From the IMG/VR virus record IMGVR_UViG_3300013093_003863, positions 24,770 through 88,769 of that record: DNA of 64,000 nucleotides. One strand, written 5' to 3'. The translations under genes and the position numbers were made by a program. Numbering within the stretch: the first letter of the stretch is position 1; each line of letters begins with the position of its first letter. This document shows, piece by piece, positions 1,832-19,200 of the stretch. The notes under the pieces were generated by a model, which saw only the letters and a program-made list of their open reading frames with translations, had not been told where the DNA came from and did no database searches. The DNA is from a virus.

Positions 1832-4800
1832 TTATGCACCACGCCACTGTGCATACAATCCAGTTACGTACATCATATCGTATTCACCATAATAGAGTTT
1901 GTTTAATTCGGTTTTTACTGCTGGAGTCAATGATCCGGTACCGGGCACCACGTCAAAAGCAAAAATCATATTGCCATCTTCGTCGTCTCCAAGATAGTCA
2001 CCGCCCAATCGTCCCATTACAATATCAATATTTTTATCAACTATCGCGTTTCTTCTTTTTGCCCTTGCAAGATCATCGGCATTTTTTTGTTTGTGTAACT
2101 TTTTATATTTAAGATCACTATTTTCCAATTCTACGTAGCCGCGAACTTCAACCCCGGGAATTTGTGCTAGACTCATCCAATTACGTTTACCGCCGGGTGT
2201 TTGTTGTGATCCAGCAAGCAAGGTTATTTTTAATATGCTTAGTGCAACACCATACAGGGCTTTGGCAATGCCCTGTCCTCGATAATCTTCATCCACTGTG
2301 ACGGTACTCACTTGGTATGCATTATTGATAGGAAAACCTACCCGCATCAATTTCAATTGTCCGACGGCTTCTTGCCCTGATTGATCTAATATTCTTATTT
2401 CTAAAAAACGCCCAGTGTCAATGGTGGCATAATTTAATCCACTGCCACCCGGTAACGGTTTTATATTCTTTTGGCTTACTGCCCTGGGATCGGTATACCT
2501 AGGATGTTTTAACACATCTTTACCACCTGTATATTGATATGATTGTAAATTTTCAATTTCGGTTATCTCGTCTTCGCTTATGGCACCGATACCTATACCA
2601 ATACCGGCACTAGCCAATGTATATTTTACAGTGTCGATCCAGTTTTTGCCGTTGACTCGACTCACCACAGTAGGTATAACAGTATTCAATACTGCCTGTA
2701 ACAACATGTTGGTCTGTGCTGGAGAAAGTTGTACATTTTGCGCTATATGCAACAAGCCACCAGTTAATAGTGTACCAATGGTTGTTATTACACCACCTTG
2801 TATATAAGGATTTGTTTTGGCTTTGACTAGAATTTCTTTAACTTGTCCACGAACTGAAGGATCGGCTTTGGCTAATAATGCTTGTGCTTGTTCAACGTAA
2901 TTGTCAACAGGTTGTCGAGCGACTTCGCCAACCTCATCTTGGTAAAAATCTATTACAGCATCAGTAACTTGATTAGCAACTTCGGATTCAAATAAACTTT
3001 CATCTACGGCACGTGCATACTCTGTAGCATGTCCACTGCGGTCTACATGCCAAGCATAAAATCTAATATCAGGATATTCTTGGTGTAACTTTAAAAATGA
3101 TTCCAAATTGGGCTTTGAATCATCGTACATAATTGCTTTGTTATAAGGATATCCTGTTAACAATCTACGTATAATACGTGCTTTCTTTTCATCAATTGGC
3201 ACAGGATCTTGATCATTTCCTGCACGGTACACATGTACCTTGTTCATATCTATGTGCCATTGTTCAAATGTTTTTAAGAATATTTCTTTATTGTTAAAGT
3301 CACTTCTAGCAGTAACCATTACAACTTTATTACCGGTTGCAATATCATTTTTCAATTGCTCAATCATGGGTGCAATTGGTTGTGCATGTTTGAAAAAGTC
3401 TTCGGCATCTCTAAATGCACCAAAGTCAAATTCTTCGCCGGGTTGCTTTTTGTACAATGTAAACTCGTGACTGTCTAGGGTCTTGACAGTTTTACCATTG
3501 CGAACTACACCAACTCGAGTATTAGTAGTTACTAGCGTATCGTCAATGTCAAATATAACTAATTTCTTTTCGCCAACAGCTTCGTCAACGCCTTCTTTGG
3601 CATGTTTCTTTTTGCCAGCTTTCATATTAGCCAACCAGTGTGCCATACGAGCTTTCTCTCCCGTACTATGTTTGGCCGTTTTACGTAGGCTACTTACACT
3701 TGCTTTAGTATTAACACCACTGCGTTTAGCCAATCCTTTGCGTCCAGGATGCTTACCATCGGCAAAGTTTTCGCTCATGATCCAAGTGTCGGGAATTTGT
3801 TTATACTTTTCTACCCAGAGATCATGCATTTTTTGTCCGCTTATACCATGACTCTTGGCTACACGTGTCATGATCTTGTCTATGATATCGTATACTTTGT
3901 CGTCATTGTCGTCGACTGCTTGTATCTGTTTTTTATGTGCTTCCAATGCGGCACGTAATTCTTCTACGGCATCTTTATCTTTGTCATGATCCATGTTTTC
4001 GTCTACTTTGTTTTGACTTTGAACATAGTCAATAGCGGATTGTACTATGACTTGATCTATCCCGAGACAGTTTTTGCGATCGCTATAGCCCTGTTTATCC
4101 ATTGCGTGGAGATAGGGATATATTCCTTGGATTTTTGGGAATAGTCCCATTTGCCAGGCCAGCTCAAAACTTATTTCTCCCCTTGGACTATACCATTCGG
4201 GATCATGACGCCATTTAATTCCAAAATTGGGTTTGACACCGTTGGGCCCTTTCACTGGTGGACCGTTATAAAATACTCCGGCACTGTTAAATTCAAGACG
4301 TGTATTATTGAAGGTCATCATGTATTCGCCATCACCTTTAGACCACATGCGATAATTCATTTTATTTAACAGTGCCACAACTGCGGGATCTTGTGAGGGA
4401 TCTTGTGCGGGTGCTTCTTTAAGAGGTGGAGCCGGTCTAAATTCAAACATGTCGGCTTCAACGTCCGAATACTTGCTGACAAGTTTTGCTATAACAGGAT
4501 CCATTGCCTTGTAGGGAATGTTGTGTGCTATTTGAATTGGTTTAGCGTTGGGTCGGCGTAGATTTAGATAAAGATTGATTCTGTCAGGATGTATGATTTT
4601 ACCTTCGTCGACATCATTTTCCCAGACATTTTGTTCGGGACGATGTTTAGCCCAAAAGCCGGCGCCAGCATCAGTTTGTTGCCCACTGCGGCGGATTTTA
4701 TAGCCTTTGCTTTTCACATAGTCATACATGGTTTGAGCAATGCCTTGCCCACGATAGCGTTCTTCAACTTCTAGGTCTTGTGGTAGTAATTCGTCACCAT

Positions 4801-5332
4801 CAAAAGCAAATAACACATGACCCAACTCACGACCGTTGCTTGTAGCCGTAACATACATTACTTGATTATCGTAATCGTCATCATCAACGTATTCATCGTC
4901 TTTTTGTATTTCAATAGAAATATCTATACCGTTAAATGCTTCTTCAGTTATGCCACTTTTTTTTAAACCAAAGTATTCGGGATTGGCCTCGGCAAAGTCA
5001 CGCATGACAACACCGGCATTGGCATTGGCTTCGTTTTCTTGTGGAGTACCAGTTTCGCCTGCAGCTGCAGTCAACTCTCCGGCTAAGTTTTGTTTATGAT
5101 GTGTTAGTTCGTGTGCAAGAGTGCGTAGCACATCTATGGGATTGCGATTGGCAATGACAACATTTAGTGTTTTTGTTTCTGGGTTATACTGCCCAAAAGT
5201 TGTATCAACAGGAGCATCTAGCAATGTGATTTCAGGAAGTTCTTTAATTCCCAATTGCTCAGCGATCCAAGGAATGTACTTTTGTACAAATGCCCGGTTG
5301 TCGCTTTCTTTAGAATACTCTTTTGCTCGCAT
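1832..5332 (-). CDS. Polyvalent multidomain protein: zincin-like peptidase, two GNAT acetyltransferases, HAD phosphatase and unknown modules
   Basis: LAHELTH (HExxH); VEERYRGQGIA and VDEDYRGQGIA (GNAT motif A); IFDIDDTL...VTAR...YDD (HAD motifs). Confidence 0.8.
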   Translation of the reverse strand: MRAKEYSKESDNRAFVQKYIPWIAEQLGIKELPEITLLDAPVDTTFGQYNPETKTLNVVIANRNPIDVLRTLAHELTHHKQNLAGELTAAAGETGTPQENEANANAGVVMRDFAEANPEYFGLKKSGITEEAFNGIDISIEIQKDDEYVDDDDYDNQVMYVTATSNGRELGHVLFAFDGDELLPQDLEVEERYRGQGIAQTMYDYVKSKGYKIRRSGQQTDAGAGFWAKHRPEQNVWENDVDEGKIIHPDRINLYLNLRRPNAKPIQIAHNIPYKAMDPVIAKLVSKYSDVEADMFEFRPAPPLKEAPAQDPSQDPAVVALLNKMNYRMWSKGDGEYMMTFNNTRLEFNSAGVFYNGPPVKGPNGVKPNFGIKWRHDPEWYSPRGEISFELAWQMGLFPKIQGIYPYLHAMDKQGYSDRKNCLGIDQVIVQSAIDYVQSQNKVDENMDHDKDKDAVEELRAALEAHKKQIQAVDDNDDKVYDIIDKIMTRVAKSHGISGQKMHDLWVEKYKQIPDTWIMSENFADGKHPGRKGLAKRSGVNTKASVSSLRKTAKHSTGEKARMAHWLANMKAGKKKHAKEGVDEAVGEKKLVIFDIDDTLVTTNTRVGVVRNGKTVKTLDSHEFTLYKKQPGEEFDFGAFRDAEDFFKHAQPIAPMIEQLKNDIATGNKVVMVTARSDFNNKEIFLKTFEQWHIDMNKVHVYRAGNDQDPVPIDEKKARIIRRLLTGYPYNKAIMYDDSKPNLESFLKLHQEYPDIRFYAWHVDRSGHATEYARAVDESLFESEVANQVTDAVIDFYQDEVGEVARQPVDNYVEQAQALLAKADPSVRGQVKEILVKAKTNPYIQGGVITTIGTLLTGGLLHIAQNVQLSPAQTNMLLQAVLNTVIPTVVSRVNGKNWIDTVKYTLASAGIGIGIGAISEDEITEIENLQSYQYTGGKDVLKHPRYTDPRAVSQKNIKPLPGGSGLNYATIDTGRFLEIRILDQSGQEAVGQLKLMRVGFPINNAYQVSTVTVDEDYRGQGIAKALYGVALSILKITLLAGSQQTPGGKRNWMSLAQIPGVEVRGYVELENSDLKYKKLHKQKNADDLARAKRRNAIVDKNIDIVMGRLGGDYLGDDEDGNMIFAFDVVPGTGSLTPAVKTELNKLYYGEYDMMYVTGLYAQWRGA

Positions 5333-5341
5333 AATGAGTAT

Positions 5342-6538
5342 TTAGTGGAACATCAAGAAGCTATTCATAACATCACGTCGATTAGCTGCTCTGTCGCCGT
5401 GTCCGCTGGCAAATACTACCACATTCCATTTACGTACTGGTCCTACTGGAATTTTCAACATTTCATCGTAGCTGATAATAGTATTGGGACGTATAGGTTG
5501 ACTACTTTCCGCACCAAACGTTTTAATTAAACGTTGTTTAAATTCTTCCCAAGCTTCGGGTGATTTAAATTGTGTACGCCCTTCGGCATCCTTGATGGCC
5601 TTGCCTTTGGGATTGGTTACAATCAAGTCTCTAAACATATCTTTAGGCACTTCAAATGCTTGTTTAACTGTACCGCCACCGGCAATGTGTTGCTTGATTG
5701 GTTTGACTTCGCGACTTTTAGCTCCGCCACTGTGCTGAATTTCAAAGTTGTCGGGCAAGTTGGCCAATGCTGCCATGGCCATCTTGGTATAAGCATAAAA
5801 ATCCACATCCGGATAGTCACGTGCTACTTGTAATGCCATGTCTAAATATTCTTTACTGAAGAAGTCACCAGCATCATGCCAACGTACTACAAGTTTCATT
5901 CCTTTAGCAGCAAGTCCGCTTTTGATTTTATCAATGTTGGCTCGTAACATAGCAAACCACTCTTCGGGATGATTAATCAAAAAGTTAAGACTACGAGCAG
6001 CACTCATGCTACTGGCCGGGAACATTACATAGCCGCCTTTTCGTGCATAACAAAACAGTTGACAAGCACCGGCTCCGGGACAGGTTACAATTTCCACAAA
6101 GTCACCGGTCGCTTCGTCCATGATAATTCCGGCCAGCGCAGGTAGTGTTAGGTCCAATACTACCTCGCCCTCAGTGGCACTTTTTAACATTTTGGCGTTG
6201 GGACTGTCCAGTATGCTTTTGGGTCTAGCCATTATTTGTCTAGCCAAGTCATCTAAATCCCATTCATTGACCGGATTGCCTTCATCATCCACTTGATCAT
6301 CTTTGGTAATGGCCTTGATATTACTGCCATGTATTATACCAGCAAAACGATCTTGTTTGGTTTGAGTGTCGGTCTTGATTCGTTCAGCGCGACTTTGCAT
6401 TGTGCCACGATCAAGTCTACGATGCGGAGCATTTAGTCCAATGGCTTCATCAACTTCGCCGCCGATGTGTAGGGGCTTGACTGTGAATCCACCTAGTTTG
6501 GTGCCCTTGGATTCGATTAAAAATTCACTTGCTCTCAT
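5342..6538 (-). CDS. GP88-like Cys-cluster (radical-SAM-related) phage protein
   Basis: CPGAGACQLFCYARKG, VRWHDAGDFFS, FYAYTK; start MRASEFL overlaps Dps stop (ATGA). Confidence 0.65.
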   Translation of the reverse strand: MRASEFLIESKGTKLGGFTVKPLHIGGEVDEAIGLNAPHRRLDRGTMQSRAERIKTDTQTKQDRFAGIIHGSNIKAITKDDQVDDEGNPVNEWDLDDLARQIMARPKSILDSPNAKMLKSATEGEVVLDLTLPALAGIIMDEATGDFVEIVTCPGAGACQLFCYARKGGYVMFPASSMSAARSLNFLINHPEEWFAMLRANIDKIKSGLAAKGMKLVVRWHDAGDFFSKEYLDMALQVARDYPDVDFYAYTKMAMAALANLPDNFEIQHSGGAKSREVKPIKQHIAGGGTVKQAFEVPKDMFRDLIVTNPKGKAIKDAEGRTQFKSPEAWEEFKQRLIKTFGAESSQPIRPNTIISYDEMLKIPVGPVRKWNVVVFASGHGDRAANRRDVMNSFLMFH

Positions 6539-6972
6539 TTTGCTGTTGCTCGTAGCATCCATGCATGTTTACGGAACGCATCAATACGTTCGGCCAAAAA
6601 GTTACTGAATCCATGTTCGCCAGCCGATTCGGCCAAGTCATAGACAACTTTGATTATGCCTATCATGTGTTCGGCATCTTCTAGTAATACGAGCACCATT
6701 TCTTCTGGTGGAAGAATTTGTGTTTCGTCTGCAATTTCGGTTAATGCACTGAAGCGTGTGTAACTGGCTGGAACATATCCACCACTTTTGCGAATGTTTT
6801 CGGCAAAATCGTCAATGCTACCGTAAACTTCCTCGTATATTTTTTGAAATAGTTTGTGGTATTGATAAAATGCAGCACCTTCTACGTTCCAGTGAAAGTT
6901 GTGACTTTTTAAATAAAAACTAAAACTGCTGGCAAAAGCAATTTTAGAGGAGTTAATTAATTCTTCGTTCAT
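6535..6972 (-). CDS. dps: Dps family ferritin-like DNA protection protein
   Basis: KSHNFHWNVEG, HKLFQKIYEE, DDFAENIR, KHAWML. Confidence 0.92.
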   Translation of the reverse strand: MNEELINSSKIAFASSFSFYLKSHNFHWNVEGAAFYQYHKLFQKIYEEVYGSIDDFAENIRKSGGYVPASYTRFSALTEIADETQILPPEEMVLVLLEDAEHMIGIIKVVYDLAESAGEHGFSNFLAERIDAFRKHAWMLRATAK

Positions 6973-6981
6973 AATGTATAT

Positions 6982-9426
6982 TTAGTCAAAGTATCCGGCA
7001 CGTCGCATTTCGGCCAAACGCACTGCCATTAAACGTTGTTGGCGACGTTCAGCAATGCCCATGGGCTTTTGATATTGGCTGGTCATTGGAGTAGGCCCGG
7101 ACAATTTAGAAACATTTACACGTTGATTGCCGGGCGGAACTGGACTTGATGAATCATCGGGACCGGCTCCCACTGCAGGATCTGCAGCATTGTACTCGTT
7201 CAATTCAATTCCGTAGTGTTTGCATACTTTTAACAATTCGTCGTATGTGAGTAATTCTAAATGACTTACATCCACTTTGTGCTTTAACTGGTCAATCAAG
7301 GACTGTCTACTGGGACCATCTTCGTCAAGACCGGGTGTTCCGGGAATAGCACTTGTACTATCGTTTGGAACCATATGGCCATCCGCATATTCCATTACTT
7401 GCCCTTGGCCATGCCAAGCATCACCTTCACCGTGCCATGAATCTTCGTCGACGTCGTTTTCGTTCATGCCCATGGCATTGTCGATTCTGGTTTCGGCTTT
7501 GGTTTTATAGTAGTATTTGGGTCCGCCTTCTTTGGGATCAACAGCTCGCCACATGAACAATTCTTTGCCGTCTACGTTCATCAACTTGGCAGCACCCGGC
7601 ACTGACATTTCTCTTGGGGCATGATGAAACGAATAGCCTTTATAGTCAATGTCTTGGTTGCCCATCATGCCAGCAACACCGGCTGCACCCAATGTAAATG
7701 CACCCAGTGCGTTTGCAAATTTGCCTTCTTCTACACCTTCAACTGTTGGTGGTTTGCCAGTAATGTACATTTTCCACTCTTTTCCAGTTTGTGCAGTTTT
7801 ACGAGCACACATCTCTCGCATCTTTTGTTTTTGTTCAAACCATGCTTTACTGTTTTCGGGACCGGCACCGGGAAAAATCTTCCAAGTACGCCCATTGATC
7901 TGTATTTCAATGTTGGCAGTGCCCATTGGCTCGTCCTGACCTTTTTTGTGGCCTAATACTTGTTTACCAAATTTGGCAGTGTGTGGTTCAAATTCTGCTT
8001 CAGCTACACCTTGCTCTTTAATTTTTAAATTTTTAAATTGATTCATGCTACTGCCAAACATATTGTCAATTGCAGCTCTTGTTCTTTCTTGGTCTTGCCG
8101 TTTTTGCTCGCGTCTATCTGCGGTGGCTTGTTTTTTGGTGCCCGTTTTAATAGTCGTCATCATGTGGTCAAAAGGCTTATCGCCTGTGGTCTCAGCCACA
8201 TCTCGCTCGTATCCGGTTTCTTCAGCTGCACCGCCAGCGTCGTGTGCCAATTGTTGTATAGCCGCCCAATACTTACGTGGAGCCGTCATGTCATCGCCAT
8301 GCCAGCTGATCGCTTTGCCGAATTTGGCCATTACTTGATTGTAGGCCTTTTCACTGTCAACGCCAAATGTTACGGTATCATATGATCCTTCCGCCACATC
8401 CTGTTGTTTAAGAACAAACACACGTGCAGGACTAATAGGTGATTGACCTGCTCGTTGTGATTTTACTAAGACTTGCCAACTTCCAGTCATCATTTCTGGT
8501 TCACTAACTACTACACCTCGGTCCCAATACTGTTTATCATCTCTTGGAGGATTTGGTAGCATGTCTTTTGGGCCTAACCATAACATTACATGAGTTCCTG
8601 GTTGTAGTCTTGATTGTGACCCTTCCGCTACGCCCTGTTGTTCTCTAACTGCAGGATTGTCAATCTGTTGTGCCACTGCAGTCAAGCCTTCGTTGCCGTT
8701 GGTGATCTTTTTGTACATCCATGCTTCTAGTGGTACGCCCTGTTTAACAGATCGGTAAATCTTTTTTGCAGCCTCGGCTATGGCCCGTAGTTCGCCCAGT
8801 GCCATACCGTCCAGTTGTTCATCTTCCATGGCATAGGCTTCTGTGCCTCCGGTCATCATGGCTTCTTCTACACTCTCACCTAAATCACTGCCTTGAAATT
8901 CTATGTGGTCATATGGACTCCAGGGTTGGCCTGTACGACTGTCTACCTCTTCACCGTTCTCGCCATCATCAGCATATTCATAGTAATCATGACTGGCCAT
9001 GTCTACACCATCAAAATCTGCGTTGTAGTCAATGTAGTATTTTCTTACCTTGCCATCAGGACAATGTACGCCACGACTCAATATTTTTTCCACTGCCACT
9101 TGTGCATCAATAACCTTCTTCATTGGGCTACCACCTTTTCGGGCTATGTCTGCCAATAGGCTCAGATCCTGTGTGTACCAAGCCTGTGCCAAAGCATGTA
9201 GATAACCCATACCATTGTCACCACCGCCGTATTCGGGACTGGGTGCAAATTCTTTTAAAGGTTTATTTTTAACACAGTTATTGACCTTGACCTCTTTGCC
9301 ATAAGTGGGACTGGCCTTTGATCCTTCTTTGTGCCAACCGGTGCGGCAGTGTTCACGATTGCGTTGTGCTTGAGTGCGTTTGGCTTCTGCAATGCTCATG
9401 GCATCTACAATATCATTTAAAAACAT
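6982..9426 (-). CDS. Large modular protein, probable virion/head cargo
   Basis: 814 aa; repeated QQGVAEG/QQDVAEG/EQGVAEA linkers; TAATG coupling with upstream gene. Confidence 0.6.
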   Translation of the reverse strand: MFLNDIVDAMSIAEAKRTQAQRNREHCRTGWHKEGSKASPTYGKEVKVNNCVKNKPLKEFAPSPEYGGGDNGMGYLHALAQAWYTQDLSLLADIARKGGSPMKKVIDAQVAVEKILSRGVHCPDGKVRKYYIDYNADFDGVDMASHDYYEYADDGENGEEVDSRTGQPWSPYDHIEFQGSDLGESVEEAMMTGGTEAYAMEDEQLDGMALGELRAIAEAAKKIYRSVKQGVPLEAWMYKKITNGNEGLTAVAQQIDNPAVREQQGVAEGSQSRLQPGTHVMLWLGPKDMLPNPPRDDKQYWDRGVVVSEPEMMTGSWQVLVKSQRAGQSPISPARVFVLKQQDVAEGSYDTVTFGVDSEKAYNQVMAKFGKAISWHGDDMTAPRKYWAAIQQLAHDAGGAAEETGYERDVAETTGDKPFDHMMTTIKTGTKKQATADRREQKRQDQERTRAAIDNMFGSSMNQFKNLKIKEQGVAEAEFEPHTAKFGKQVLGHKKGQDEPMGTANIEIQINGRTWKIFPGAGPENSKAWFEQKQKMREMCARKTAQTGKEWKMYITGKPPTVEGVEEGKFANALGAFTLGAAGVAGMMGNQDIDYKGYSFHHAPREMSVPGAAKLMNVDGKELFMWRAVDPKEGGPKYYYKTKAETRIDNAMGMNENDVDEDSWHGEGDAWHGQGQVMEYADGHMVPNDSTSAIPGTPGLDEDGPSRQSLIDQLKHKVDVSHLELLTYDELLKVCKHYGIELNEYNAADPAVGAGPDDSSSPVPPGNQRVNVSKLSGPTPMTSQYQKPMGIAERRQQRLMAVRLAEMRRAGYFD

Positions 9427-10337
9427 TATTTGACTCCTGCGGCAGCATTTTGTTTTTGTGTTGCCTGTTTAACTGCTGTAGCAATTTGTTGTGATGCTTG
9501 TGGATCTAGTAGTGCCGGCCCAAGTTCATCAGTTACAGTGGCAGCAAACTTTTTAGCTTGTGGGCTCATGCCTTTTCCTGTTGCAGGATCAGCATTGGGA
9601 GTGTTTAAAAATTCAGCTCCACCGTTTGCCGCAGTAGGAACACCACCTACGGGCTTTTTACCAGTGGCTTGAGAAATTTTTTGTAAACCGGTTGTTATTG
9701 TTTGTTTTTGCTTTGCTGCCACCTGTGGATTTTGTTGTTGTCCACCTTGGGCTGGATTACTGGCTCCTGCTTCTTGAACGTAGGCCTTCCACTCGCGTGC
9801 AATAGCCTCTTCTATGCTTTCTTCGCAACCACCAACACCTTGTCCGGGACGAGGTGGGTTCTTGTCGGTGCCCTTCCAGTAACCACCAAATTTGGCACCA
9901 CGTGGATTATGTTCAGCCGCCGCCATACTGTCTTCGTTCTTGGGACGGATGTGATGTTTTTTCATGTTGATGGCCTTGGCAGCCTGTATCTGTGCCGGAC
10001 TAGCAGCTTCTGCTTGTGTCTGGGCCTGTTGATTTTGTGCAACTTGTTGGCTGGGTGGAGTTGTTGCCGGTGGTTTGAATGCAGTTGAGCCTATTTCTTT
10101 TTGCACTGTGTATGTTTTACCATCACTAGCCTTCATTTGCGTAAATGGTTGCAGAGCAAGTTGTTTGGCTACGTCTTGAGGATTGAACCCGTATTTTTTT
10201 GCAGCCGTATCCACATCCAAGTAATCCAACTGCTTGCCAGTTTGTGGATCGGATATGGCCACTGCCTTCATGCCCTGCGGAGCCATTTCATCTAACCGTT
10301 TGAATGTGTTTATGATATTGCTAAAATGCTGATCCAT
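9426..10337 (-). CDS. Hypothetical Gln/Ala-rich protein, probable virion protein
   Basis: 303 aa, coupled to neighbours by TAATG. Confidence 0.6.
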   Translation of the reverse strand: MDQHFSNIINTFKRLDEMAPQGMKAVAISDPQTGKQLDYLDVDTAAKKYGFNPQDVAKQLALQPFTQMKASDGKTYTVQKEIGSTAFKPPATTPPSQQVAQNQQAQTQAEAASPAQIQAAKAINMKKHHIRPKNEDSMAAAEHNPRGAKFGGYWKGTDKNPPRPGQGVGGCEESIEEAIAREWKAYVQEAGASNPAQGGQQQNPQVAAKQKQTITTGLQKISQATGKKPVGGVPTAANGGAEFLNTPNADPATGKGMSPQAKKFAATVTDELGPALLDPQASQQIATAVKQATQKQNAAAGVK

Positions 10338-11581
10338 TATTTTTTGGCCTTTGGTGGTTTGATATCGTGCTTGACGTTGCTTTGTCTATTGGAATAGCCT
10401 TGCAATCGTTTTTGCACTTGTGCCTTGGTCATGCCACCAGCACCCAATTCAGTAACAACGGTAGCAACTGAACTGCTTACAGTGGCACCAGAATCTTCAC
10501 TTAGTCGATTTAATTCTTGTTTGAGTTGTTGTCTTAACGACTTTGTTTCGTTAACACTCTCGCCTGCATGTTTAAAATATTGTACTTGACGTTCACGTTT
10601 TTCTGCACCGGCTCTAGTGGGATACTTGCCCAAATTCTTGTCGCCATGTTTGCTCTTTAACTCGTAACCGCCTTTGACTTTAACAATGTGCTCCTCCACA
10701 CCTTTCTTTAAAAAGTTAGGTATCTCTCCTGGTGCTTTACTTTTGTTCACGGGCTTTTGTGGTATATTATATTTAGGACCATCAAGTCGAGTGGCAAGTG
10801 GACCAAAGTGTTTACTGGCTTTGGGATCGACTTCTATACGTTTGCGATTGGGATAACTCAGTGATGTCTTTTCGTCGGCCCAACGTTGGCCTTCCGCCAT
10901 ACCTTGTGGTTGTTGTGCTGACTGATATAATTCGGGGTACGCTTTTCTAATATCAATAATAGCATCTTTTACAGTTTTGTTAGTTCTGTCGCCAACTTCT
11001 TGGCCTAGTACCTGTCTATTTTGTTTTACATACGTTAAAATATTTCTAACAGTATCAGCATCACGGCCCACTAACTCAAGTGCGTGTGCTCCGTCTCCGT
11101 GTGGATATAGTGCTTTTGACCAATTATGCCAGTCTGATTCTACAGGATTGTAGCCCTCTTCTATGCCTTCCCAATCACTTGGATCGTGTTCGCCATAATA
11201 GTAGTGCTCCATGGCCTCTTGACGGCTCCAGTGATATTTTTGCATTAGATGTTGTATTTTTCTTTCTGCTTCGTCTTCGTCATCAAGCATTTCATTAACA
11301 GTTTGTTCAGCATTGCCAATATTGAACGCAGGCAATCCGTCTTCGTGTTCTTTGTCCATTTCGTGTTGGCTCAATGCATAGTCCATGACAGTGACCATCA
11401 TTTCTTTAATAGCTCCGAGTTTTTCCTCGACCCATTCAGGTAAATGTTCGTTGTCGCTTAACGCACCTTCTAAGTGACTGGCTACACGTACAATGGTGTG
11501 CAAGGTGTTTTTGGCCATAGTTGCATCAGTGCCATCACTGGGTGCATCGGTAAATTCTTGTAAAAATTCTGTGGGTTTCAT
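10337..11581 (-). CDS. Modular hypothetical protein, probable virion/head cargo
   Basis: 414 aa; MKPTEFLQE N-terminus; QGMAEG linker; TAAATA upstream. Confidence 0.6.
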   Translation of the reverse strand: MKPTEFLQEFTDAPSDGTDATMAKNTLHTIVRVASHLEGALSDNEHLPEWVEEKLGAIKEMMVTVMDYALSQHEMDKEHEDGLPAFNIGNAEQTVNEMLDDEDEAERKIQHLMQKYHWSRQEAMEHYYYGEHDPSDWEGIEEGYNPVESDWHNWSKALYPHGDGAHALELVGRDADTVRNILTYVKQNRQVLGQEVGDRTNKTVKDAIIDIRKAYPELYQSAQQPQGMAEGQRWADEKTSLSYPNRKRIEVDPKASKHFGPLATRLDGPKYNIPQKPVNKSKAPGEIPNFLKKGVEEHIVKVKGGYELKSKHGDKNLGKYPTRAGAEKRERQVQYFKHAGESVNETKSLRQQLKQELNRLSEDSGATVSSSVATVVTELGAGGMTKAQVQKRLQGYSNRQSNVKHDIKPPKAKK

Positions 11582-11612
11582 CGTGATTCCTGAATATATT
11601 GTATATTTAGCG

Positions 11613-11891
11613 TTAAGTAGAAAACGTTAAATCTTGTGAATCTACAGTTTTGCTATCAACAGTTAAATTGCGAGGTCTAAATACAGTTTCAGCTCCGCAA
11701 CTTTCTATACGAACTTGGTGTGTGCCGGATTCGATATCGACTTCTAAGTTTTCTTGTATGAATATTTCGTATGCGGGCCAGATCCAACTGCGTTCGGTCA
11801 ATAAGTCATTGTCCACATACACACGATATGCCGGAGTACCGTGTTGTGTTGTATCACAGTAAACATCGAGCGTGATCACTGTGCGGGCCAT
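11613..11891 (-). CDS. Hypothetical beta-rich protein
   Basis: 92 aa ORF in operon context. Confidence 0.6.
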   Translation of the reverse strand: MARTVITLDVYCDTTQHGTPAYRVYVDNDLLTERSWIWPAYEIFIQENLEVDIESGTHQVRIESCGAETVFRPRNLTVDSKTVDSQDLTFST

Positions 11892-11892
11892 G

Positions 11893-13134
11893 TTACATGG
11901 CTCCTAACTTTCTACCCACAATTATTTCCAGTTTCTTTTGTTCAAGTTCTTTTAGTTTTGGAGCATACGCACGTTCAGCTTCGGGATCGCCTTTGACCAT
12001 GTTTTGAATACTGTTGATACGCATGTCGATCATGTCTAATAGATTTTGTTTGGCTCGAGCAAGGCCACTATCAAAACTATCATTTTCTTTCAAGCCCCGA
12101 CCCACGGTATTTTTAACTGGTGTTTGGCCAGTTTTGGGTGCTTTAACTCCGGTCAAATGAAGTGCCTTCATTTCGTCGCCCAATGTCTTGCCAGTTACTG
12201 CATTTTGATCGCCAGCAGTGCTCATTACATAGCGTGGATCATTCCCGCCTTTGACCACACCAACCCCGCCCATTTCACTGACTAGAGAATTGGCTCGCTT
12301 GGCACTCTTTTTAACCTCCATACCACCTGCAGGTTCAGCCGGTGCCGGTAACCGTGTAGCGGTCTTTGCTGGTGGTGTCCCGGCAACAGGTTCGGCTCCC
12401 GAATCCGGGGTTATTTTATTGAATATGTGTACCAGCTCGGGAGTGGCACGTCCATATAATGCCTTTAAGAAAGCATCACGTTGCTTGGGGTCGTTTCTAA
12501 CTTGGTTGTAGACTGCACGGCATTCGGTGCCATGACTGATATCCACTATTTCACCATTTACAGTAAACGGCACTTTCTTTTCGGGAACAACCAGCACATA
12601 AGCATGTCCTTCACCTACAGTAACAGTGTCAGTTAGATTCTTTGGTAATGTTTTAAACGGCTTTTCGTCGCCCACTGCTTTTCCCGGGGGAATAGTGGCT
12701 CGACGTCCTGTGGGCGTAAACTCTTGATAAAAGCTATCAACTTCCAAACGTTCTTTGTCGGGAGCACCAACGGCAAAAATTAAAACTGTAGAGTTTGTAT
12801 CGATTCCAGCAGCCGCTACCACTGAATCTATCCCGTAAGGATCATTGACCAATAGTATTTGATGATCGTTGACTCCAGCTGCCTTCATGAGCTGGATTTT
12901 TTCATTGGCGTTAAACGGATTCTTGGGAAGTGATTTCTTGTCGTATTTTTGTCCCGATGCTATTTTGTCTTGAACTGTATTGGGACTAGTGGTAATACGC
13001 ACATTGTCAGCACCAAATTTGGCCTGCAACAGTTTTAGTACAGCAAGATGCCCTTGATGAAAGGGCTGAAAGCGTCCGGGATAAGCTACCAGTACACGAC
13101 GCTCTTGTGCTTCAAATAATTCAGTGACAAACAT
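11893..13134 (-). CDS. HIGH-family cytidylyltransferase-like nucleotidyltransferase with C-terminal extension
   Basis: YPGRFQPFHQGH motif; NPF...EK motif. Confidence 0.75.
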   Translation of the reverse strand: MFVTELFEAQERRVLVAYPGRFQPFHQGHLAVLKLLQAKFGADNVRITTSPNTVQDKIASGQKYDKKSLPKNPFNANEKIQLMKAAGVNDHQILLVNDPYGIDSVVAAAGIDTNSTVLIFAVGAPDKERLEVDSFYQEFTPTGRRATIPPGKAVGDEKPFKTLPKNLTDTVTVGEGHAYVLVVPEKKVPFTVNGEIVDISHGTECRAVYNQVRNDPKQRDAFLKALYGRATPELVHIFNKITPDSGAEPVAGTPPAKTATRLPAPAEPAGGMEVKKSAKRANSLVSEMGGVGVVKGGNDPRYVMSTAGDQNAVTGKTLGDEMKALHLTGVKAPKTGQTPVKNTVGRGLKENDSFDSGLARAKQNLLDMIDMRINSIQNMVKGDPEAERAYAPKLKELEQKKLEIIVGRKLGAM

Positions 13135-13162
13135 AGTAATATTCTCTATTACTATATTTAGT

Positions 13163-13609
13163 TTATATTGTTTCTAACAACCAAATATAAAACGGACAAG
13201 CAAACGGCAGTTCCCATGCACCGTTCCAGCCGAGATCCACACATCGGGTCAACACAGGACGATCAGGATCATCGGCACGAAATTGAGTCTTGAAAACTAA
13301 TATACTGTCCAAGTCAACTTCGTCAATCGTGATTTTTTTAATGTTCAGCAGCATGTCCTTGACTATTGCAGTCTTGTCGGCATTTTCCACAGTGTCGTCA
13401 TTGGTTTTATTTTCCAATCGGATCTTGAGCATGTGATCGGTTTCGGCAAGCTCGAGATCGAATTCGATTGTTTCAACTTCGCCACTGGGATTTTTAACCA
13501 AAGCCCTGACAATTTCTGTATCATCCACCAGGATCGAGTACTCGGGCACCTTGTGCCAATAAGTACCTCCCAGTGTGATTTTGAAATGAAGTTTTTCGGT
13601 CTTGGACAT
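13163..13609 (-). CDS. Hypothetical protein
   Basis: 148 aa ORF in operon context. Confidence 0.6.
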   Translation of the reverse strand: MSKTEKLHFKITLGGTYWHKVPEYSILVDDTEIVRALVKNPSGEVETIEFDLELAETDHMLKIRLENKTNDDTVENADKTAIVKDMLLNIKKITIDEVDLDSILVFKTQFRADDPDRPVLTRCVDLGWNGAWELPFACPFYIWLLETI

Positions 13610-14727: not shown

Positions 14728-15432
14728 TTAGGCCTGTACAACCTCGTGAATTTTTCCCACTATACCCGGACTCATTAAAGAGAGCATGGTCACAACGCCC
14801 AAATCATTGGTGTAGAAAAAAGCTCCCCACATGCCTGGATAGGGTCGTTTCAAATTGTGTCTTAACCCGGCAGTGAGTTTTACATCTTCTTGACTTTCTA
14901 ATAGATTAAGCATTTGTTCTTTTAGTAGCAAATCGTAAGTGCCATCTCTCAACAGTATCTTATATTTAAAAGGTATTTTTGGAGCAATGATTACATCTGA
15001 ACAGAGCAATTCTTCTGTGCCTGCCCGCGGACCAGTTATAGCCCGAATGCAACTATAAGTCGATAAGATTTTTGCTACTGATTTTAAATCATTTTCGTCT
15101 TTTGTATAAAATTGAACATTAGAATCTTCAATACGAGTTTTTGTAAGAGATACAAAATTTTCTTTCAGTGTCCTGATACTTTTTAATAAACCAAAATCGA
15201 CTTTATCGTACCTATCGGCTTGTGCTTTGTGTCGCCAACTGCCGCCCCAATTGCTTCGATTTTGAGCTTGAAGTTTCAATAGTTCTACGGCACGTTCGGT
15301 ATTATCATAACAAGCCACTTGAGCACAGTCGGCATGTATTTCCATACGCCAAAGATACTGACCCCAGAATCGTTTCTTGGTCTCTTTGAACTTGATACCG
15401 TAATTAAGACTGTTCCAGAATGATGTATCCAT
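14728..15432 (-). CDS. Hypothetical protein
   Basis: 234 aa from MDTSFW, overlapping the ClpA 3' end. Confidence 0.55.
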   Translation of the reverse strand: MDTSFWNSLNYGIKFKETKKRFWGQYLWRMEIHADCAQVACYDNTERAVELLKLQAQNRSNWGGSWRHKAQADRYDKVDFGLLKSIRTLKENFVSLTKTRIEDSNVQFYTKDENDLKSVAKILSTYSCIRAITGPRAGTEELLCSDVIIAPKIPFKYKILLRDGTYDLLLKEQMLNLLESQEDVKLTAGLRHNLKRPYPGMWGAFFYTNDLGVVTMLSLMSPGIVGKIHEVVQA

Positions 15433-17683: not shown

Positions 17684-17691
17684 AAAAATAT

Positions 17692-18534
17692 TTAGTTAGA
17701 GTTGAGTATGTTTTGGATAGTGTCAAGTTGTTGTTGATCGAGATTTTTAGGAACAGTCACAGTCATCTCGGCATATAAATCTCCTCGATGTTCTGAATGC
17801 ATTTGATATATTCCCTGTTGTGCCAATCTGAATTTAACGTTGGGTTGTGTACCCGGTGGAATAGCAATGGTAAATTTTTTATTGTCAAGACCAACAACTT
17901 CGGCAACACCGCCTACTATTGCAGTTAAACAGTTTACACTAAACCGGGTGTGTAAGTCAATGCCATTTGATACATGAAAATTGTCGTTGGCATGAACTGT
18001 TATCTGCACAAACAAATCGCCACGCGGCAAAGTATTAAACATATTATCGCCAAGTCCGGGATATTTTATTTGAGTTCCGCTTGTTACTCCACGTGGAACC
18101 ATGACTTCTACTGCTTCTCTTGTGCCAGTGGTGGTTTGTATGCTAATTGTCTTGGCTTGCTCGTGCAAGGTTTCTGCTAGACTAATTGGCAATTCGATCC
18201 GTAAATCTTTATTGCGTCTCTGTTGTTGTGGACGTAAATGTGCAAAAGGATCGTTTCCAAATCCAAAGTTTTTGAATATTTCTTGTATGTCGGGATGCCC
18301 GCCATTGTGCCAAGTAAAGTGTACTCCGCCGGAGCCGGGATTGCGACGCTCGTGGTCATAGCGTTGACGTCGGTCACTATCGGACAAAGTATCATACGCA
18401 GTTTGAATCTCTTGAAATTTTTGAGTATCTCCGCCTTTATCGGGATGATGCTGGCTGGCCAATTTTCGGTAAGCTCGTTTGATTTCATCGGTTCCGGCAG
18501 ATTCTTCAACACCTAGTGTTTCATAATGAGTCAT
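17692..18534 (-). CDS. dnaJ: DnaJ-class co-chaperone (CbpA-like, no zinc finger)
   Basis: J domain with HPD; C-terminal GDL substrate-binding repeats. Confidence 0.9.
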   Translation of the reverse strand: MTHYETLGVEESAGTDEIKRAYRKLASQHHPDKGGDTQKFQEIQTAYDTLSDSDRRQRYDHERRNPGSGGVHFTWHNGGHPDIQEIFKNFGFGNDPFAHLRPQQQRRNKDLRIELPISLAETLHEQAKTISIQTTTGTREAVEVMVPRGVTSGTQIKYPGLGDNMFNTLPRGDLFVQITVHANDNFHVSNGIDLHTRFSVNCLTAIVGGVAEVVGLDNKKFTIAIPPGTQPNVKFRLAQQGIYQMHSEHRGDLYAEMTVTVPKNLDQQQLDTIQNILNSN

Positions 18535-18579: not shown

Positions 18580-18597
18580 TATATTGTAGTCGAAAAA

Positions 18598-19200
18598 CTA
18601 CGCAGTGCCGGCTTTCTTTTCCATTGTTCGGCCAAATGCACTTACGCCCAGTATACCACCAAACGCCAAGTGGATAAGTCCACCGTTGCTGAGTGTTAGA
18701 CTCTGCCAAGCAGTATAGCCCATTTGAACCCCAAATCCCTTTTCAATGATGGGCAAGAACATGCTGATCATGGGAAAGGCCACAAAGTCCATGAAACAGA
18801 TCAGCATGTACAACCAACCCATTGCCGGACGCCAAAAACTCTTCATCCAGTGTTCGGGCTCTTTGCCCTCACTGGCCGCCATTAAGTTACCAAATGCAGC
18901 GGTTGTGTTAGCATCTGGAGCAACTGGTTGTTGTCCAAATCCTGTTCGTGACTGCCCAAACCCTCCGCCAAACCCACCTGTGCTCATACTGTTACCCAAT
19001 GGCACATTGCCATTACCAAATCCGCCGGGAGCGGATGATCCAAAGTTGGATTGTGTGGGAGTGGCATTAAACACGGGTGCTGGTGTTGGTTGAGCAGGAG
19101 CACTACTTGTAAACAAACTAGGGGCTTTACTGGTTTGTGCCGCAGCTATGTCGGCACTTGTTGGGTGTTGACCTTCGTCATCGGGATCTAATTTTGGCAT
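18598..19200 (-). CDS. Holin-like membrane protein with long low-complexity N-terminus
   Basis: WRPAMGWLYM...TM...HLAFGGILGVSAFGRTMEK resembles 3TM GTA-type holin; sits at the end of the lysis cassette. Confidence 0.55.
   Translation of the reverse strand: MPKLDPDDEGQHPTSADIAAAQTSKAPSLFTSSAPAQPTPAPVFNATPTQSNFGSSAPGGFGNGNVPLGNSMSTGGFGGGFGQSRTGFGQQPVAPDANTTAAFGNLMAASEGKEPEHWMKSFWRPAMGWLYMLICFMDFVAFPMISMFLPIIEKGFGVQMGYTAWQSLTLSNGGLIHLAFGGILGVSAFGRTMEKKAGTA

Follow-up and report, generated by a model that had tools for sequence, protein, structure and literature searches.

In bacteriophage T4, the capsid targeting sequence (CTS) is described as a 10-residue peptide ending in EFIAE (PMC8442874), with residues 4 and 7 responsible for targeting and residues 8 and 10 for directing processing, and the prohead protease gp21 is described as cleaving after L/I-X-E (PMC9026906). 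The characterised gp21 homologues (T4, phiKZ, 201phi2-1, and SPN3US) all cut after Glu within a three-residue motif (PMC5694885). Phage polyvalent proteins, according to Iyer, Burroughs, Anand, de Souza, and Aravind (2017), combine several unrelated effector domains on one polypeptide. We analyzed a 64,000-nt stretch of phage DNA (the window), in which positions 1832-13134 hold six minus-strand genes with short leaders that end, like the T4 CTS, in hydrophobic-x-Glu, and whose products similarly join unrelated domains. Our search found nothing in print on this system. The analysis points, with a probability of approximately 0.6, to a hypervariable cargo locus in which leader-tagged module chains would be packaged and cut by a gp21-type protease, with modules exchanged at the linkers.

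Source phage and relatives

The source phage is an uncultured, giant, T4-related phage from a lake. The window belongs to a fragment of 88.8 kb from a T4-superfamily jumbo phage whose genome is ~350 kb (the record is 25% complete), and the DNA polymerase is closest to those of Phosso, Atu_ph07, GAP32, and Rak2-like jumbo phages (43-51% identity). The relative G001 (354 kb, 98% complete) has 90 of the 124 proteins in common with the source contig, at a mean identity of 60% and in conserved order. None of the cultured relatives or phages searched carried the locus proteins, and the basic NFADGK module described below found no match there either.

The prohead protease gene, which the first-pass annotation expected elsewhere in the genome, was found as a gp21-type gene in the relative G001 (proteins ~60% identical overall) but not in the source contig. 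A search of that contig for protease and capsid genes revealed neither, as expected for a 25% fragment, and within the window the locus has no head gene linked to it. G001 encodes a Peptidase_S77 protein (89 bits; 37% identical to T4 gp21) and a Gp23 protein (328 bits; 36% identical to gp23). The N-terminus of this capsid protein reads ...KMLAE-NASAG directly before the conserved core, which gives a propeptide end of L-A-E|N.

Locus genes, leaders, and promoters

The genes and leaders were as follows.

1832..5332, minus strand: p1166, putative nine-module polyprotein (ORF, Pfam, PHROGs, AlphaFold, Foldseek, BLAST borders)
5306-5332, minus strand: leader MRAKEYSKE of p1166 (pLDDT <50 for residues 1-7)
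5345..6538, minus strand: p406/398, GP88 family (L009 homologue arranged alike)
6512-6538, minus strand: leader MRASEFLIE of p406/398
6535..6972, minus strand: Dps/ferritin-like gene, no leader (Pfam Ferritin, 1.4e-21)
6982..9426, minus strand: p814, ~nine modules of unassigned fold (relatives' BLAST borders, AlphaFold model)
9385-9426, minus strand: 14-residue leader MFLNDIVDAMSIAE of p814
9426..10337, minus strand: p303, low-complexity protein of no assigned function, 17-residue leader (ORF list)
10337..11581, minus strand: p414, modular protein of no assigned function (ORF and relatives)
11555-11581, minus strand: leader MKPTEFLQE of p414
11893..13134, minus strand: p413, cytidylyltransferase/NMNAT-like nucleotidyltransferase (Pfam CTP_transf_like)
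13111-13134, minus strand: leader MFVTELFE of p413

The ORFs and coordinates of the five leader genes proposed in the first-pass annotation were confirmed, and p303, whose leader ends in RLDE, is a sixth; L009 has these 17 residues (1-17) unchanged, at 100% identity, while the module after them differs. MRASEFLIE begins at an internal ATG that forms an ATGA overlap with the Dps stop codon; translation probably begins at this ATG and not at 6562, where the longest ORF opens. The Dps gene is conserved in 10 related loci on eight contigs.

Scanning six frames of the 88.8-kb contig with the leader pattern returned 11 matches, four of which are gene starts of the cluster. The core pattern was present at 101 of 160 distinct homologue N-termini compared with 15 of 410 G001 proteins (Fisher p = 7e-53); 59 of the 160 fell outside the core pattern and 52 outside both tested patterns. 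The N-termini of T4 gp24, gp22, and gp21, read from the T4 record, are shaped like the locus leaders.

Late promoters had been proposed ahead of several of these genes. A CTAAATA box does precede four of them, but the canonical T4 late box TATAAATA is absent there and is not enriched (5 compared with 3.15 expected).

5339-5345, minus strand: CTAAATA box before p1166
6979-6985, minus strand: CTAAATA box before Dps
11604..11610, minus strand: CTAAATA box before p414
13155-13161, minus strand: CTAAATA box before p413

Half of the 18 CTAAATA boxes in the contig (9/18) are followed, on their own strand, by a gene start no more than 60 nt away (~4% expected). Two of the four locus boxes take their TAA from the stop codon of the preceding gene, and only 6 nt separate the end of the box from the ATG. 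In G001, the head operons have a box of the TAAATA-TAG type ahead of them, and so do the locus genes.

Modules of p1166

The p1166 protein is modular. Its leader (1-9) is followed by an HExxH zincin (10-126), GNAT-1 (~131-243), three modules of no known family (244-521), the basic NFADGK module (522-584), a Pnkp-like HAD phosphatase (585-778), a hydrophobic helical module (779-~920), and GNAT-2 (~921-1166). Foldseek matches comprised the T4 Pnkp phosphatase, AphA, and GNATs. The zincin folds confidently (pLDDT 88-98); it had no significant family (Pfam DUF6647 and Peptidase_M91 were below the cut-off), and a PDB sequence search returned no match.

4943..4954, minus strand: junction G-I-T-E (then E-A), zincin/GNAT-1; low-pLDDT gap 126-130, confident domains on both sides
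4601..4612, minus strand: junction V-D-E|G, residues 241-244; homology borders 242/243, low pLDDT 230-251
3995..4006, minus strand: junction V-D-E|N, residues 443-446; low-pLDDT gap 443-447, homology border 441
3767..3778, minus strand: junction M-S-E|N before the basic module; low pLDDT 511-530, homology border 519
3581..3769, minus strand: basic NFADGK module, residues 522-584, internal here
3578..3589, minus strand: junction V-D-E|A, basic module/HAD phosphatase; low-pLDDT gap 577-585, homology borders 584-590

Each of these gaps between confident domains, including the longer 230-251 and 511-530, contains a site. The codons of the V-D-E sites are varied, with four different Val codons. In G001, the zincin is a separate 127-aa gene ending at the G-I-T-E junction. 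A stand-alone GNAT-1 in L012 begins MRASEFIIE-DAFKGIDI, so that this module follows FIIE| at an N-terminus and GITE| inside p1166. Homologues of the module after V-D-E|G begin MHLFDLFEDNATE-GKILHP at the same point, and their ATE|GKILHP matches VDE|GKIIHP of p1166. The same module following either suggests that leader end and internal linker are equivalent.

Punctuation motif and its placement

Every internal motif quoted in the first-pass annotation was present in the proteins. The loose form [VILM]-x-E, however, was barely enriched: 70 instances in 3516 aa (19.9 per 1000 aa) compared with 16.2 per 1000 aa in the other 118 proteins and a shuffle mean of 49. The narrower form V-[D/A/E]-E-[G/A/S/N/T], defined post hoc from the same data, was strongly enriched, with 11 instances in 3516 aa compared with 6 in 23,560 aa (Fisher p = 1e-6), ~12-fold above the rest of the contig and against a shuffle mean of 1.1.

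In an unbiased count of k-mers, GVAE stood in 52 unrelated contexts and the next unrelated 4-mer in 9. The logo of 257 contexts reads E/K/Q at P6, Q at P5, G at P4, V at P3, A/D at P2, E at P1, and G/A/D/N at P1'. The true punctuation reads (Q)G-V-[A/D/E]-E plus a small residue, and it has the form of a gp21 site, with a hydrophobic P3 and Glu at P1. The motif stands at module borders: counting related sequences repeatedly, 1918 of 7960 internal BLAST endpoints lay within 8 aa of a site (404 +/- 39 in circular-shift controls), and 289 of 345 internal sites had an endpoint within 8 aa.

Pfam and PHROGs returned no match for p814, and Foldseek none at E<=0.001. Its borders are listed below, together with those of p414 and p413.

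8620..8637, minus strand: p814 linker QGVAEG, residues 264-269; contig breaks 8619 and 8621 (runs X6, X10, X11)
8386..8403, minus strand: p814 linker QDVAEG, residues 342-347; contig breaks 8389 and 8395
8188..8202, minus strand: p814 linker DVAE|T, residues 409-413; break 8188, homology borders 407-413
7996..8013, minus strand: p814 linker QGVAEA, residues 472-477; homology border 476, low pLDDT 467-504
7723..7740, minus strand: p814 linker EGVEEG, residues 563-568; homology borders 568/569, low pLDDT 548-588
7456..7467, minus strand: p814 junction M-N-E|N, residues 654-657; break 7456 (X11), homology borders 653-658, low pLDDT from 652
10889-10906, minus strand: p414 linker QGMAEG; contig breaks/joints at 10886-10906 and 11555
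12082-12093, minus strand: p413 site L-K-E|N, after which an extra C-terminal module follows; the G001 orthologue ends exactly there

Whether the motifs fall in disordered linkers was answered in part. They do so in the inter-domain gaps of p1166 and for 7 of 10 instances in p814, where the low-confidence coil holds all five (G/D)-V-x-E sites, but some lie in confident helices, namely I-A-E 12-14 (the leader) and I-A-E 216-218 of p814. Placement in p413 and p406 was judged by Pfam match alone, the AlphaFold models covering p1166 and p814: V-G-E 173-175 of p413, listed as a non-linker instance, is outside the Pfam-matched part of the enzyme (18-123), and I-M-D-E of p406 falls within the GP88-matched region (122-307). 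The two models are of mediocre quality, averaging pLDDT 62 and 60 and scoring under 50 for 43-48% of residues; a low-confidence position is therefore weak evidence for any single site.

DNA-level fixation and module exchange

Rare codons fix the canonical linker at the DNA level, a feature that the first-pass annotation missed. At 33 sites with unrelated flanks (17 further loci), V was GTG in 29 (background 16%), A was GCG in 30 (background 9%), and G was GGT in 31; a first set of 23 sites gave the same picture, and P6 was AAG in 9 of 10 linker sites. With at most one mismatch, the 12-mer linker core has nine copies in G001, eight of them within the locus and in frame. The window's linkers are not DNA-identical (no exact copy of the core, two with one mismatch). 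Linker DNA kept letter for letter would serve as an in-frame recombination joint.

Related phages swap modules at the punctuation sites. Of the 10 listed contig pieces that diverge from the window (155 further pieces lie outside the listing), 8 break no more than 6 nt from a predicted boundary (8389, 8395, 8619, 8621 twice, 8873, 8188, and 7456). In co-occurring strains, joints connect the p814 linker at 8620..8637 with the p414 leader or the p414 linker, and the joint 8188->8388 (run X6) removes module 347-412 of p814 exactly and in frame. Fixation and recombination thus provide a second, partly competing, non-proteolytic reason for linker constancy.

The basic module provides a further line of evidence. 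This module of ~58 residues, together with the x-x-Glu rule at its border, is new here; no Pfam or PHROG family was found for it, and 2037 representative proteins match at E<=1e-3. It is the C-terminal end in most carriers: in 126 of the 143 closest matches, no more than 70 aa separate its start from the C-terminus. It follows directly on x-x-E in 143 of 144 representative proteins; Glu stands at P1 in 143 of 143 proteins from different 50%-identity clusters, and P3 is hydrophobic in 124 of these 143 (25% expected; p = 3e-55), with P2 free; only 31 of these 124 borders carry the canonical G/D-V/M-A-E. Judged on these counts, the borders are a protein-level signal independent of the linker DNA consensus.

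A secondary possibility, clearly less probable than processing, is that the linker is kept only as a recombination joint or for another DNA or RNA role (e.g., a ribosome pause), the chains acting intact and the likeness of QGVAEG to a protease site being a by-product. The fixed rare codons, the in-frame core copies in G001, and the natural variants that break and rejoin exactly at linkers fit this explanation, for which the glycine-rich crossover motifs of gp38 are a T4-superfamily precedent (PMC3157838). Nevertheless, it leaves unexplained why hydrophobic-x-Glu is kept at borders of different DNA (the V-D-E sites of p1166 and the 124 NFADGK borders), why leaders end in the same motif, and why an arbitrary joint should spell a gp21-type site; moreover, the window's own linkers differ in DNA. 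Because the two roles are compatible, only the strict form excludes cleavage, and the recombination-joint linker probably doubles as a protease site.

Proposed processing and remaining alternatives

The first-pass annotation proposed polyproteins that are packaged, cut, and injected. The leaders, the motif at module borders, the relative's protease and capsid propeptide, and the polyvalent-type domain repertoire support this proposal in part, whereas the motif instances inside helices and the absence of head genes from the source contig weigh against it. Under the cargo reading, the amphipathic leader M-(R/K)-x-x-(E/D)-F/L-(I/L)-x-E would act as a T4-type CTS and carry the protein into the core of the prohead. 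The remainder consists of independent modules in a row, each 60-250 residues long (recognisable ones being the zincin, two GNATs, the Pnkp-like HAD phosphatase, and the NMNAT-like transferase, with many others unassigned), divided by hydrophobic-x-Glu and a small residue, canonically QGVAE|G. A gp21-type (S77) prohead protease would cleave after the linker Glu during head maturation, and the freed small proteins would remain in the head and exit with the DNA. The canonical linker DNA would act as an in-frame joint at which co-occurring phages gain, lose, and reorder modules.

It is unlikely that another protease, either the co-encoded HExxH zincin or a host protease after entry, cuts the chains with no involvement of the prohead protease. 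A confidently folded HExxH module heads p1166, the zincin is a separate leader-bearing gene in G001 and in T4-like cyanophage B23 (gp332, leader MNYKQFLRE), and Iyer et al. (PMC5512222) propose zincin-like peptidases as polyvalent-protein processors. However, the sites have the Glu-terminated, three-residue form cut by the characterised gp21 homologues, the leaders and the G001 capsid propeptide end in the same motif, and the zincin lacks a significant family or PDB sequence match.

Least probable, and improbable overall, is that these are cytoplasmic fused enzymes of which nothing is packaged. The shared N-terminus would then serve translation initiation, the mRNA, or recombination, or would be the tag by which the ClpA-like unfoldase encoded nearby recognises the proteins. 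The HAD phosphatase, NMNAT-like transferase, and Dps neighbour are plausible in the cytoplasm, ClpA/ClpB-like and DnaJ genes lie just downstream of the block coordinates (15404-18534), L006 has one module as a leaderless ORF of 80 aa on its own, and the window links no head gene to the locus. However, the leader fits T4 head-protein propeptides at positions important for targeting and cutting, one of the 15 G001 leader-pattern proteins, of 77 aa, is encoded where gp67 would lie in the head module, between portal and protease, the TAAATA-TAG box is common to locus genes and head operons, and module sizes and domain repertoire fit known packaged effectors.

Comparison with known systems

Similar to T4 IPI, IPII, IPIII, and Alt, the proteins described here have a short N-terminal leader (ending EFLIE/EFLQE here and EFIAE in the T4 CTS), the clade has a gp21-family protease, the putative cargo is diverse, evolves fast, looks non-essential, and lies in a hypervariable locus, and the modules resemble the T4 internal proteins (8-20 kDa) in size. 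In contrast to T4, in which the cargo is encoded by separate genes with one cut each (Alt at both ends), up to nine unrelated modules share a chain here, and the linker is longer, conserved, and fixed in its DNA. P3 is mostly Val rather than the Leu/Ile favoured by T4 gp21, and this group is known from sequence alone.

The 120 homologues listed include deaminase, ParB, NUDIX, GH19+LysM, M23, amidoligase, HD, ART, NMNAT, and sigma-70 domains, a repertoire that is that of polyvalent proteins (PMC5512222). The domains in common are zincin, GNAT, deaminase, ParB, NUDIX, ART, lysozyme-like, and amidoligase, and for polyvalent proteins, too, packaging and delivery alongside the DNA are predicted. 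They differ in that zincin autoprocessing is proposed there, and the available portion of that paper describes no capsid-targeting leader, defined inter-domain cut motif, or DNA-fixed linker.

In phiKZ, 201phi2-1, and SPN3US, a gp21 homologue similarly cuts many head-internal proteins after the Glu of a three-residue motif, sometimes at several sites, and the cargo is ejected into the host. Their motif is S/A/G-X-E or A-X-E, their propeptides exceed 100 residues, their substrates are not chains of independent enzymes, and they belong to another phage lineage.

PeSL cassettes are reportedly conserved short motifs that permit crossovers in the T4 superfamily. Like the linkers, the gp38 motifs and PeSLs are short conserved sequences on either side of variable segments; crossovers at them let phages exchange modules without extended homology. 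The gp38 motifs are structural core elements within one folded domain, and PeSLs are intergenic promoter-terminator cassettes, whereas the joint described here is coding, in frame, and placed between proteins that fold separately.

Leader-bearing genes and their candidate promoters

The block at 1832-13134 contains the following genes, named by their length in amino acids.

Genes of the block and their matches in Pfam and PHROGs
1832-5332, minus strand: p1166; two GNATs, a HAD/Pnkp-type phosphatase, and a weak zincin
5342-6562, minus strand: p406; GP88; probable true start at 6538
6535-6972, minus strand: Dps/ferritin gene; ferritin
6982-9426, minus strand: p814; no family match
9426-10337, minus strand: p303; no family match
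10337-11581, minus strand: p414; no family match
11613-11891, minus strand: p92; no family match
11893-13134, minus strand: p413; cytidylyltransferase-like fold

The first-pass annotation had described five short N-terminal leaders ending at a Glu. When open reading frames and coordinates were checked, all five were recovered exactly as quoted, and a sixth was found on p303 (MDQHFSNIINTFKRLDE), which was 100% conserved in a relative although the next module differed. The leaders were 8-17 residues long and ended in F-L-I-E, F-L-Q-E, L-F-E, S-I-A-E, or R-L-D-E; the start ATG of MRASEFLIE overlapped the Dps stop codon (ATGA). They exhibited the features of a T4-type propeptide, namely a length of approximately 10-19 residues, an L/I-x-E end, and a hydrophobic residue at the equivalent of position 7 of the T4 capsid targeting sequence (CTS), with MRAKEYSKE as the poorest fit. 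A six-frame scan of the contig yielded 11 matches to the leader pattern, 4 of which were starts of block genes. The core pattern was present in 101 of 160 distinct N-termini among 200 homologues, compared with 15 of the 410 proteins of G001, a nearly complete relative genome; five of these 15 were encoded in the syntenic locus. Ahead of the same modules, leader ends and internal linkers (the hydrophobic-x-Glu punctuation between modules) were interchangeable.

TAAATA late promoters had been proposed for several genes. CTAAATA, a candidate late-promoter box, was found before four block genes; the canonical TATAAATA was not enriched. Of the 18 CTAAATA occurrences, nine had a start on their own strand no more than 60 nt downstream; four of these were in the block, and two of the four overlapped the stop codon of the upstream gene. 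The same type of box preceded the head operons of G001.

The Dps/ferritin-like gene (6535-6972, minus strand), which has no leader and is situated centrally in the cargo locus, retained 59-94% identity in 10 related loci on eight contigs. The small leaderless proteins p92 (11613-11891, minus strand) and p148 (13163-13609, minus strand) were interspersed with cargo genes and kept in relatives; neither matched a Pfam or PHROGs family, and in G001 a second, diverged copy of p148 adjoined the first. Immediately past the block (15404-18534, minus strand), a ClpA/ClpB-like AAA+ protein (759 aa) and a DnaJ-like protein (280 aa) were assigned by reading the sequence, and the ClpA-like gene also had a CTAAATA box ahead. 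In the related locus L006, p814 module 269-343 occurred as a stand-alone 80-aa open reading frame (9995-10237, plus strand) starting MNSTQSRLQ and lacking a leader; it is a counter-example to leader targeting of every module, unless it is the remnant of a broken gene.

Punctuation at module borders

p1166 combined a zincin, two GNATs, a HAD domain, and further unknown modules. At least 214 homologues of p1166 and 80 of p814 were identified, each having only part of the modules in common, and other domains in them included deaminase, ParB, NUDIX, GH19+LysM, M23, amidoligase, HD, ART, NMNAT, sigma-70, and SOD. The loose [VILM]-x-E punctuation that had been proposed was hardly enriched (19.9 vs 16.2 per 1000 aa), whereas a narrower motif, V-[D/A/E]-E-small, which was picked after the data had been seen, occurred 11 times in 3516 aa; the remaining 118 proteins (23,560 aa) contained it 6 times (Fisher p = 1e-6). 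In a k-mer count that disregarded homologous contexts, GVAE occurred in 52 unrelated contexts and QGVAEG in 33, compared with 9 for the next unrelated 4-mer. The logo of 257 contexts read [E/K/Q]-Q-G-V-[A/D]-E followed by G, A, D, or N. The V-D-E junctions of p1166 used four different Val codons, and Val, Glu, and the small P1' residue were kept.

The module borders were analyzed along three lines treated as independent: BLAST segments, AlphaFold models, and strain contigs. BLAST segments ended at residues 126/128, 242, 441, 519, and 584 of p1166 and at residues 59, 188, 268, 343/346, 412, 476, 568, and 653-658 of p814. Of 7960 internal endpoints, in which related sequences are counted repeatedly, 24.1% fell within 8 aa of a site, compared with 5.1% in circular shifts, and 289 of 345 sites had an endpoint within 8 aa.

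Structure prediction largely bore out the view that the motifs lie in inter-domain linkers. In p1166 (mean pLDDT 62), the confident domains spanned residues 11-125, 131-220, 531-576, and 586-785, and the sites fell in the gaps at 126-130, 230-251, 443-447, 511-530, and 577-585. In p814 (mean pLDDT 60), the five (G/D)-V-x-E sites and two further motif instances, seven of 10 in total, were in low-confidence coil, but the I-A-E instances at 12-14 and 216-218 were within helices.

In strain contigs from four lake runs, likeness to the window ended at 8389, 8395, 8619, 8621 (twice), 8873, 8188, and 7456, corresponding to the boundaries after Glu346, Glu268, Glu184, Glu412, and Glu656 of p814. These breaks accounted for 8 of the 10 diverging contig pieces that were listed, 155 further pieces lying outside the list. 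In one contig, 8189-8387 was missing and a single letter stood at the joint, so that p814 module 347-412 was lost in frame. In others, the p814 linker at 8618/8619 was connected to the p414 leader (11555) or to the p414 linker (10889). Modules thus demonstrably exchange at linkers in nature, and module order differed among relatives.

Fixation of the linker at the DNA level

The codons at 23 sites, drawn from 11 loci together with G001 and the window, were GTG for Val in 16/20 (genome background 18%), GCG for Ala in 18/23 (background 6%), and GGT for Gly in 20/23. An independent set was obtained from 41 further loci, 17 of which provided 33 sites with unrelated flanks; GTG was used in 29/33, GCG in 30/33 (p = 2e-28), and GGT in 31/33, and the P6 Lys was AAG in 9/10. 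Because rare codons are fixed across unrelated flanks, the canonical linker (QGVAE followed by G) is maintained as DNA. With at most one mismatch, the 12-base linker core had nine copies in the whole of G001, eight of them in the locus and in frame. The linkers of the window were looser, with no exact copy of the core and two copies with one mismatch. Synonymous variation in the window had been considered as proof of protein-level selection alone; this argument was dropped, since the canonical linker is fixed at the DNA level.

A 705-aa protein of G001 (131570-133687, minus strand) carried six canonical linkers, four of which shared the 12-base core, three of these within an identical 17-base string. 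It had no match in Pfam; one module (…YLWHGSR…YATSDP…) may resemble ADP-ribosyltransferase motifs.

A basic module preceded by glutamate

A basic module of approximately 58 residues (NFADGKHPGRKG..., window 3581-3769, minus strand; p1166 residues 522-584), designated NFADGK, matched 2037 cluster representatives (50% identity), of which 887 reached E<=1e-10, and the matches were usually 80-95% identical. Neither Pfam nor PHROGs has a family for it, searches of cultured phages retrieved nothing, and G001 and the source contig had one copy each. We examined its start in the best 150 matches, which comprised 144 new proteins with a recognizable start in 143. The preceding residue was Glu in 143/143, and P3 was hydrophobic in 124/143 (25% expected; p = 3e-55), with P2 free (A, K, N, E, G, L, T, D, or Q). 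A hydrophobic P3, free P2, and Glu at P1 correspond to the rule of gp21, the T4 prohead protease. The canonical-type G/D-V/M-A-E preceded the module in just 31/143; a protein-level signal therefore exists beyond the DNA consensus, and this module gives cleaner evidence than do the p1166 V-D-E junctions. The module directly followed the leader (…FITE, …LFE, or …IITE) in three proteins, and in 126/143 its start was no more than 70 aa from the C-terminus.

These observations bear on a strict reading in which the linkers are swap joints only. The codon fixation and the mapped exchanges are what this reading predicts, but the signal before the basic module extends beyond the DNA consensus, and we consider the reading unlikely.

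The source phage and its complete relative

The source record in IMG/VR (88,769 bases), of which the window takes up 24770-88769, was 25% complete according to CheckV. Its DNA polymerase was nearest to those of Sinorhizobium phage Phosso (51%) and Atu_ph07 (44%), followed by GAP32, Rak2-like coliphages, and Vibrio phage 2.275.O (42-43%). Since these nearest polymerases all come from phages with genomes of 350-490 kb, the source is a fragment of an approximately 350-kb T4-superfamily jumbo phage. The stretch was present in freshwater and lake metagenome runs of many studies, with no RNA dataset among the listed holders.

Scanning viral contigs for relatives yielded G001 (354,429 bases, 98% complete), which had 90 of 124 proteins in common with the source contig at a mean identity of 60% and in the same order. 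Between the two, the polyprotein locus was a rearranged stretch flanked by conserved polymerase (81%) and glycosyltransferase/ClpA genes (87% and 78%). The prohead protease gene was sought and was not found in the 88.8-kb source contig, but G001 encoded a Peptidase_S77 protease (89 bits; 37% identity to T4 gp21) and a Gp23 capsid protein (328 bits; 36% identity to T4 gp23). Neither family matched in the source contig, which we read as incompleteness of the fragment rather than true absence.

The head module of G001 consisted of portal, a 77-aa gene, a 360-aa acidic protein, protease, scaffold, and capsid protein, the T4 order 20-67-68-21-22-23. Shortly N-terminal of its conserved core, the capsid protein read …KMLAE-NASAG, where T4 gp23 reads …FLTE-AEIGG; on sequence, this is likely an L-x-E propeptide site. 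The 77-aa gene (18586-18819, minus strand), which takes the place of T4 gene 67 between portal and acidic core protein, started with the cargo-type leader MNIFELFDK and had a TAAATA box ahead. The leader type is common to cargo proteins and a head-module gene.

Cutting of the linkers by a protease other than S77 is improbable: p1166 carries a zincin of its own, but the residues before the basic module follow the gp21 pattern and G001 encodes a gp21-type protease. That the block proteins are enzymes acting outside the virion is very improbable beside a leader found also in the head module.

Zincin and other modules

The HExxH module of p1166 folded confidently in AlphaFold; its Pfam hits were sub-threshold, and its profile retrieved nothing below E = 0.5 among PDB sequences. 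For p1166, the matches were limited to zincins that three cyanophages encode as stand-alone proteins and to a GNAT of one Campylobacter phage. In the cultured T4-like cyanophage Synechococcus phage B23, the same zincin was a stand-alone 124-aa gene (gp332; L038 4001-4375) starting with the CTS-like leader MNYKQFLRE; the leader-tagged zincin therefore predates the polyproteins and is more widely spread. Residues 779-920 of p1166 (window 2573-2998, minus strand) comprised long hydrophobic Gly/Ile-rich helices (…GIGIGIGAIS) in a low-confidence prediction, and this module may be membrane-active.

Searches of cultured phages with the block DNA, and tblastn searches with p814, the 705-aa protein of G001, and the basic module, returned no match. 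The QGVAEG coding pattern was not found in Vibrio phage 2.275.O, Phosso, GAP32, or Atu_ph07, and Foldseek returned no match to the p814 model at E<=0.001.

Interpretation and comparison with known systems

The leader-bearing proteins are modular chains with punctuation at the module borders, and the linker is fixed at the DNA level. We favor, at a probability of roughly 0.6, the combined reading that these chains are packaged in the head, cleaved by the S77 protease, and injected. A bolder version, which we advance tentatively as somewhat doubtful, is a population-wide cut-and-swap system in which the codon-locked linker would be both a prohead-protease site and a homologous-recombination joint, and NFADGK a universal cleavable tail. 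Under this proposal, giant lake phages would share a pool of injectable mini-proteins re-dealt in frame, and for every new combination the leader would automatically provide packaging and the linker release. The tail might tether cargo to packaged DNA or serve as a DNA counter-ion.

If the linkers are cut, leader and motif would provide a sequence-only rule for head-loaded, host-delivered proteins of uncultured T4-superfamily giant phages, and hundreds of unknown modules, likely counter-defence factors, would become accessible to investigation. As an in-frame joint fixed in DNA, the linker would give proteins a natural means of shuffling their domains. Leader and linker could also be reused in T4-type capsid vectors, so that one gene supplies several foreign proteins to be packaged and then released, and NFADGK is an abundant domain outside Pfam and PHROG families.

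In the main texts of the literature searched, no phage paper contained QGVAEG, GVAEG, or QGVAE (matches were synuclein and others), and no paper contained NFADGK, ENFADG, MRASEF, or MRATEFITE. Searches on phage polyproteins, prohead protease, and ejection proteins yielded only T4/SPN3US and polyvalent-protein papers.

The closest resemblance is to the internal proteins and Alt of T4, although there each gene encodes a single cargo. The CTS of T4 comprises 10 residues, the last five being EFIAE (PMC8442874); residues 4 and 7 serve targeting and residues 8 and 10 processing, and gp21 cleaves after L/I-X-E (PMC9026906). The present leaders (M-R/K-x-x-E-F-L-x-E) have Phe, Ile/Leu, and Glu at the corresponding places, and T4 head proteins start MAKINELLRE (gp24), MLKEQLIAE (gp22), and MNEPQLLIE (gp21) in the T4 record. 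Polyvalent proteins have a domain logic in common with the block proteins, and p1166 conforms to their definition of 2-15 unrelated effector-type domains in one polypeptide; the portions consulted of PMC5512222 and PMC7824862 ascribe processing to zincins and describe no leader or linker. Ejection proteins of phiKZ and SPN3US have long propeptides and are cleaved after Glu by gp21 homologues at S/A/G-X-E or A-X-E (PMC5694885). The present proteins differ in having V/I/L/M at P3 and leaders of 8-17 residues, and the phage is on the T4/Rak2-like side.

The linkers also represent motif-mediated shuffling, in that a short DNA-conserved sequence flanks variable segments and exchanges map there. PeSL cassettes reportedly mediate modular shuffling in the T4 superfamily, and in gp38 crossovers are placed within glycine-rich motifs (PMC3157838). 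These motifs and cassettes are the nearest parallels to an exchange at linkers fixed in DNA.
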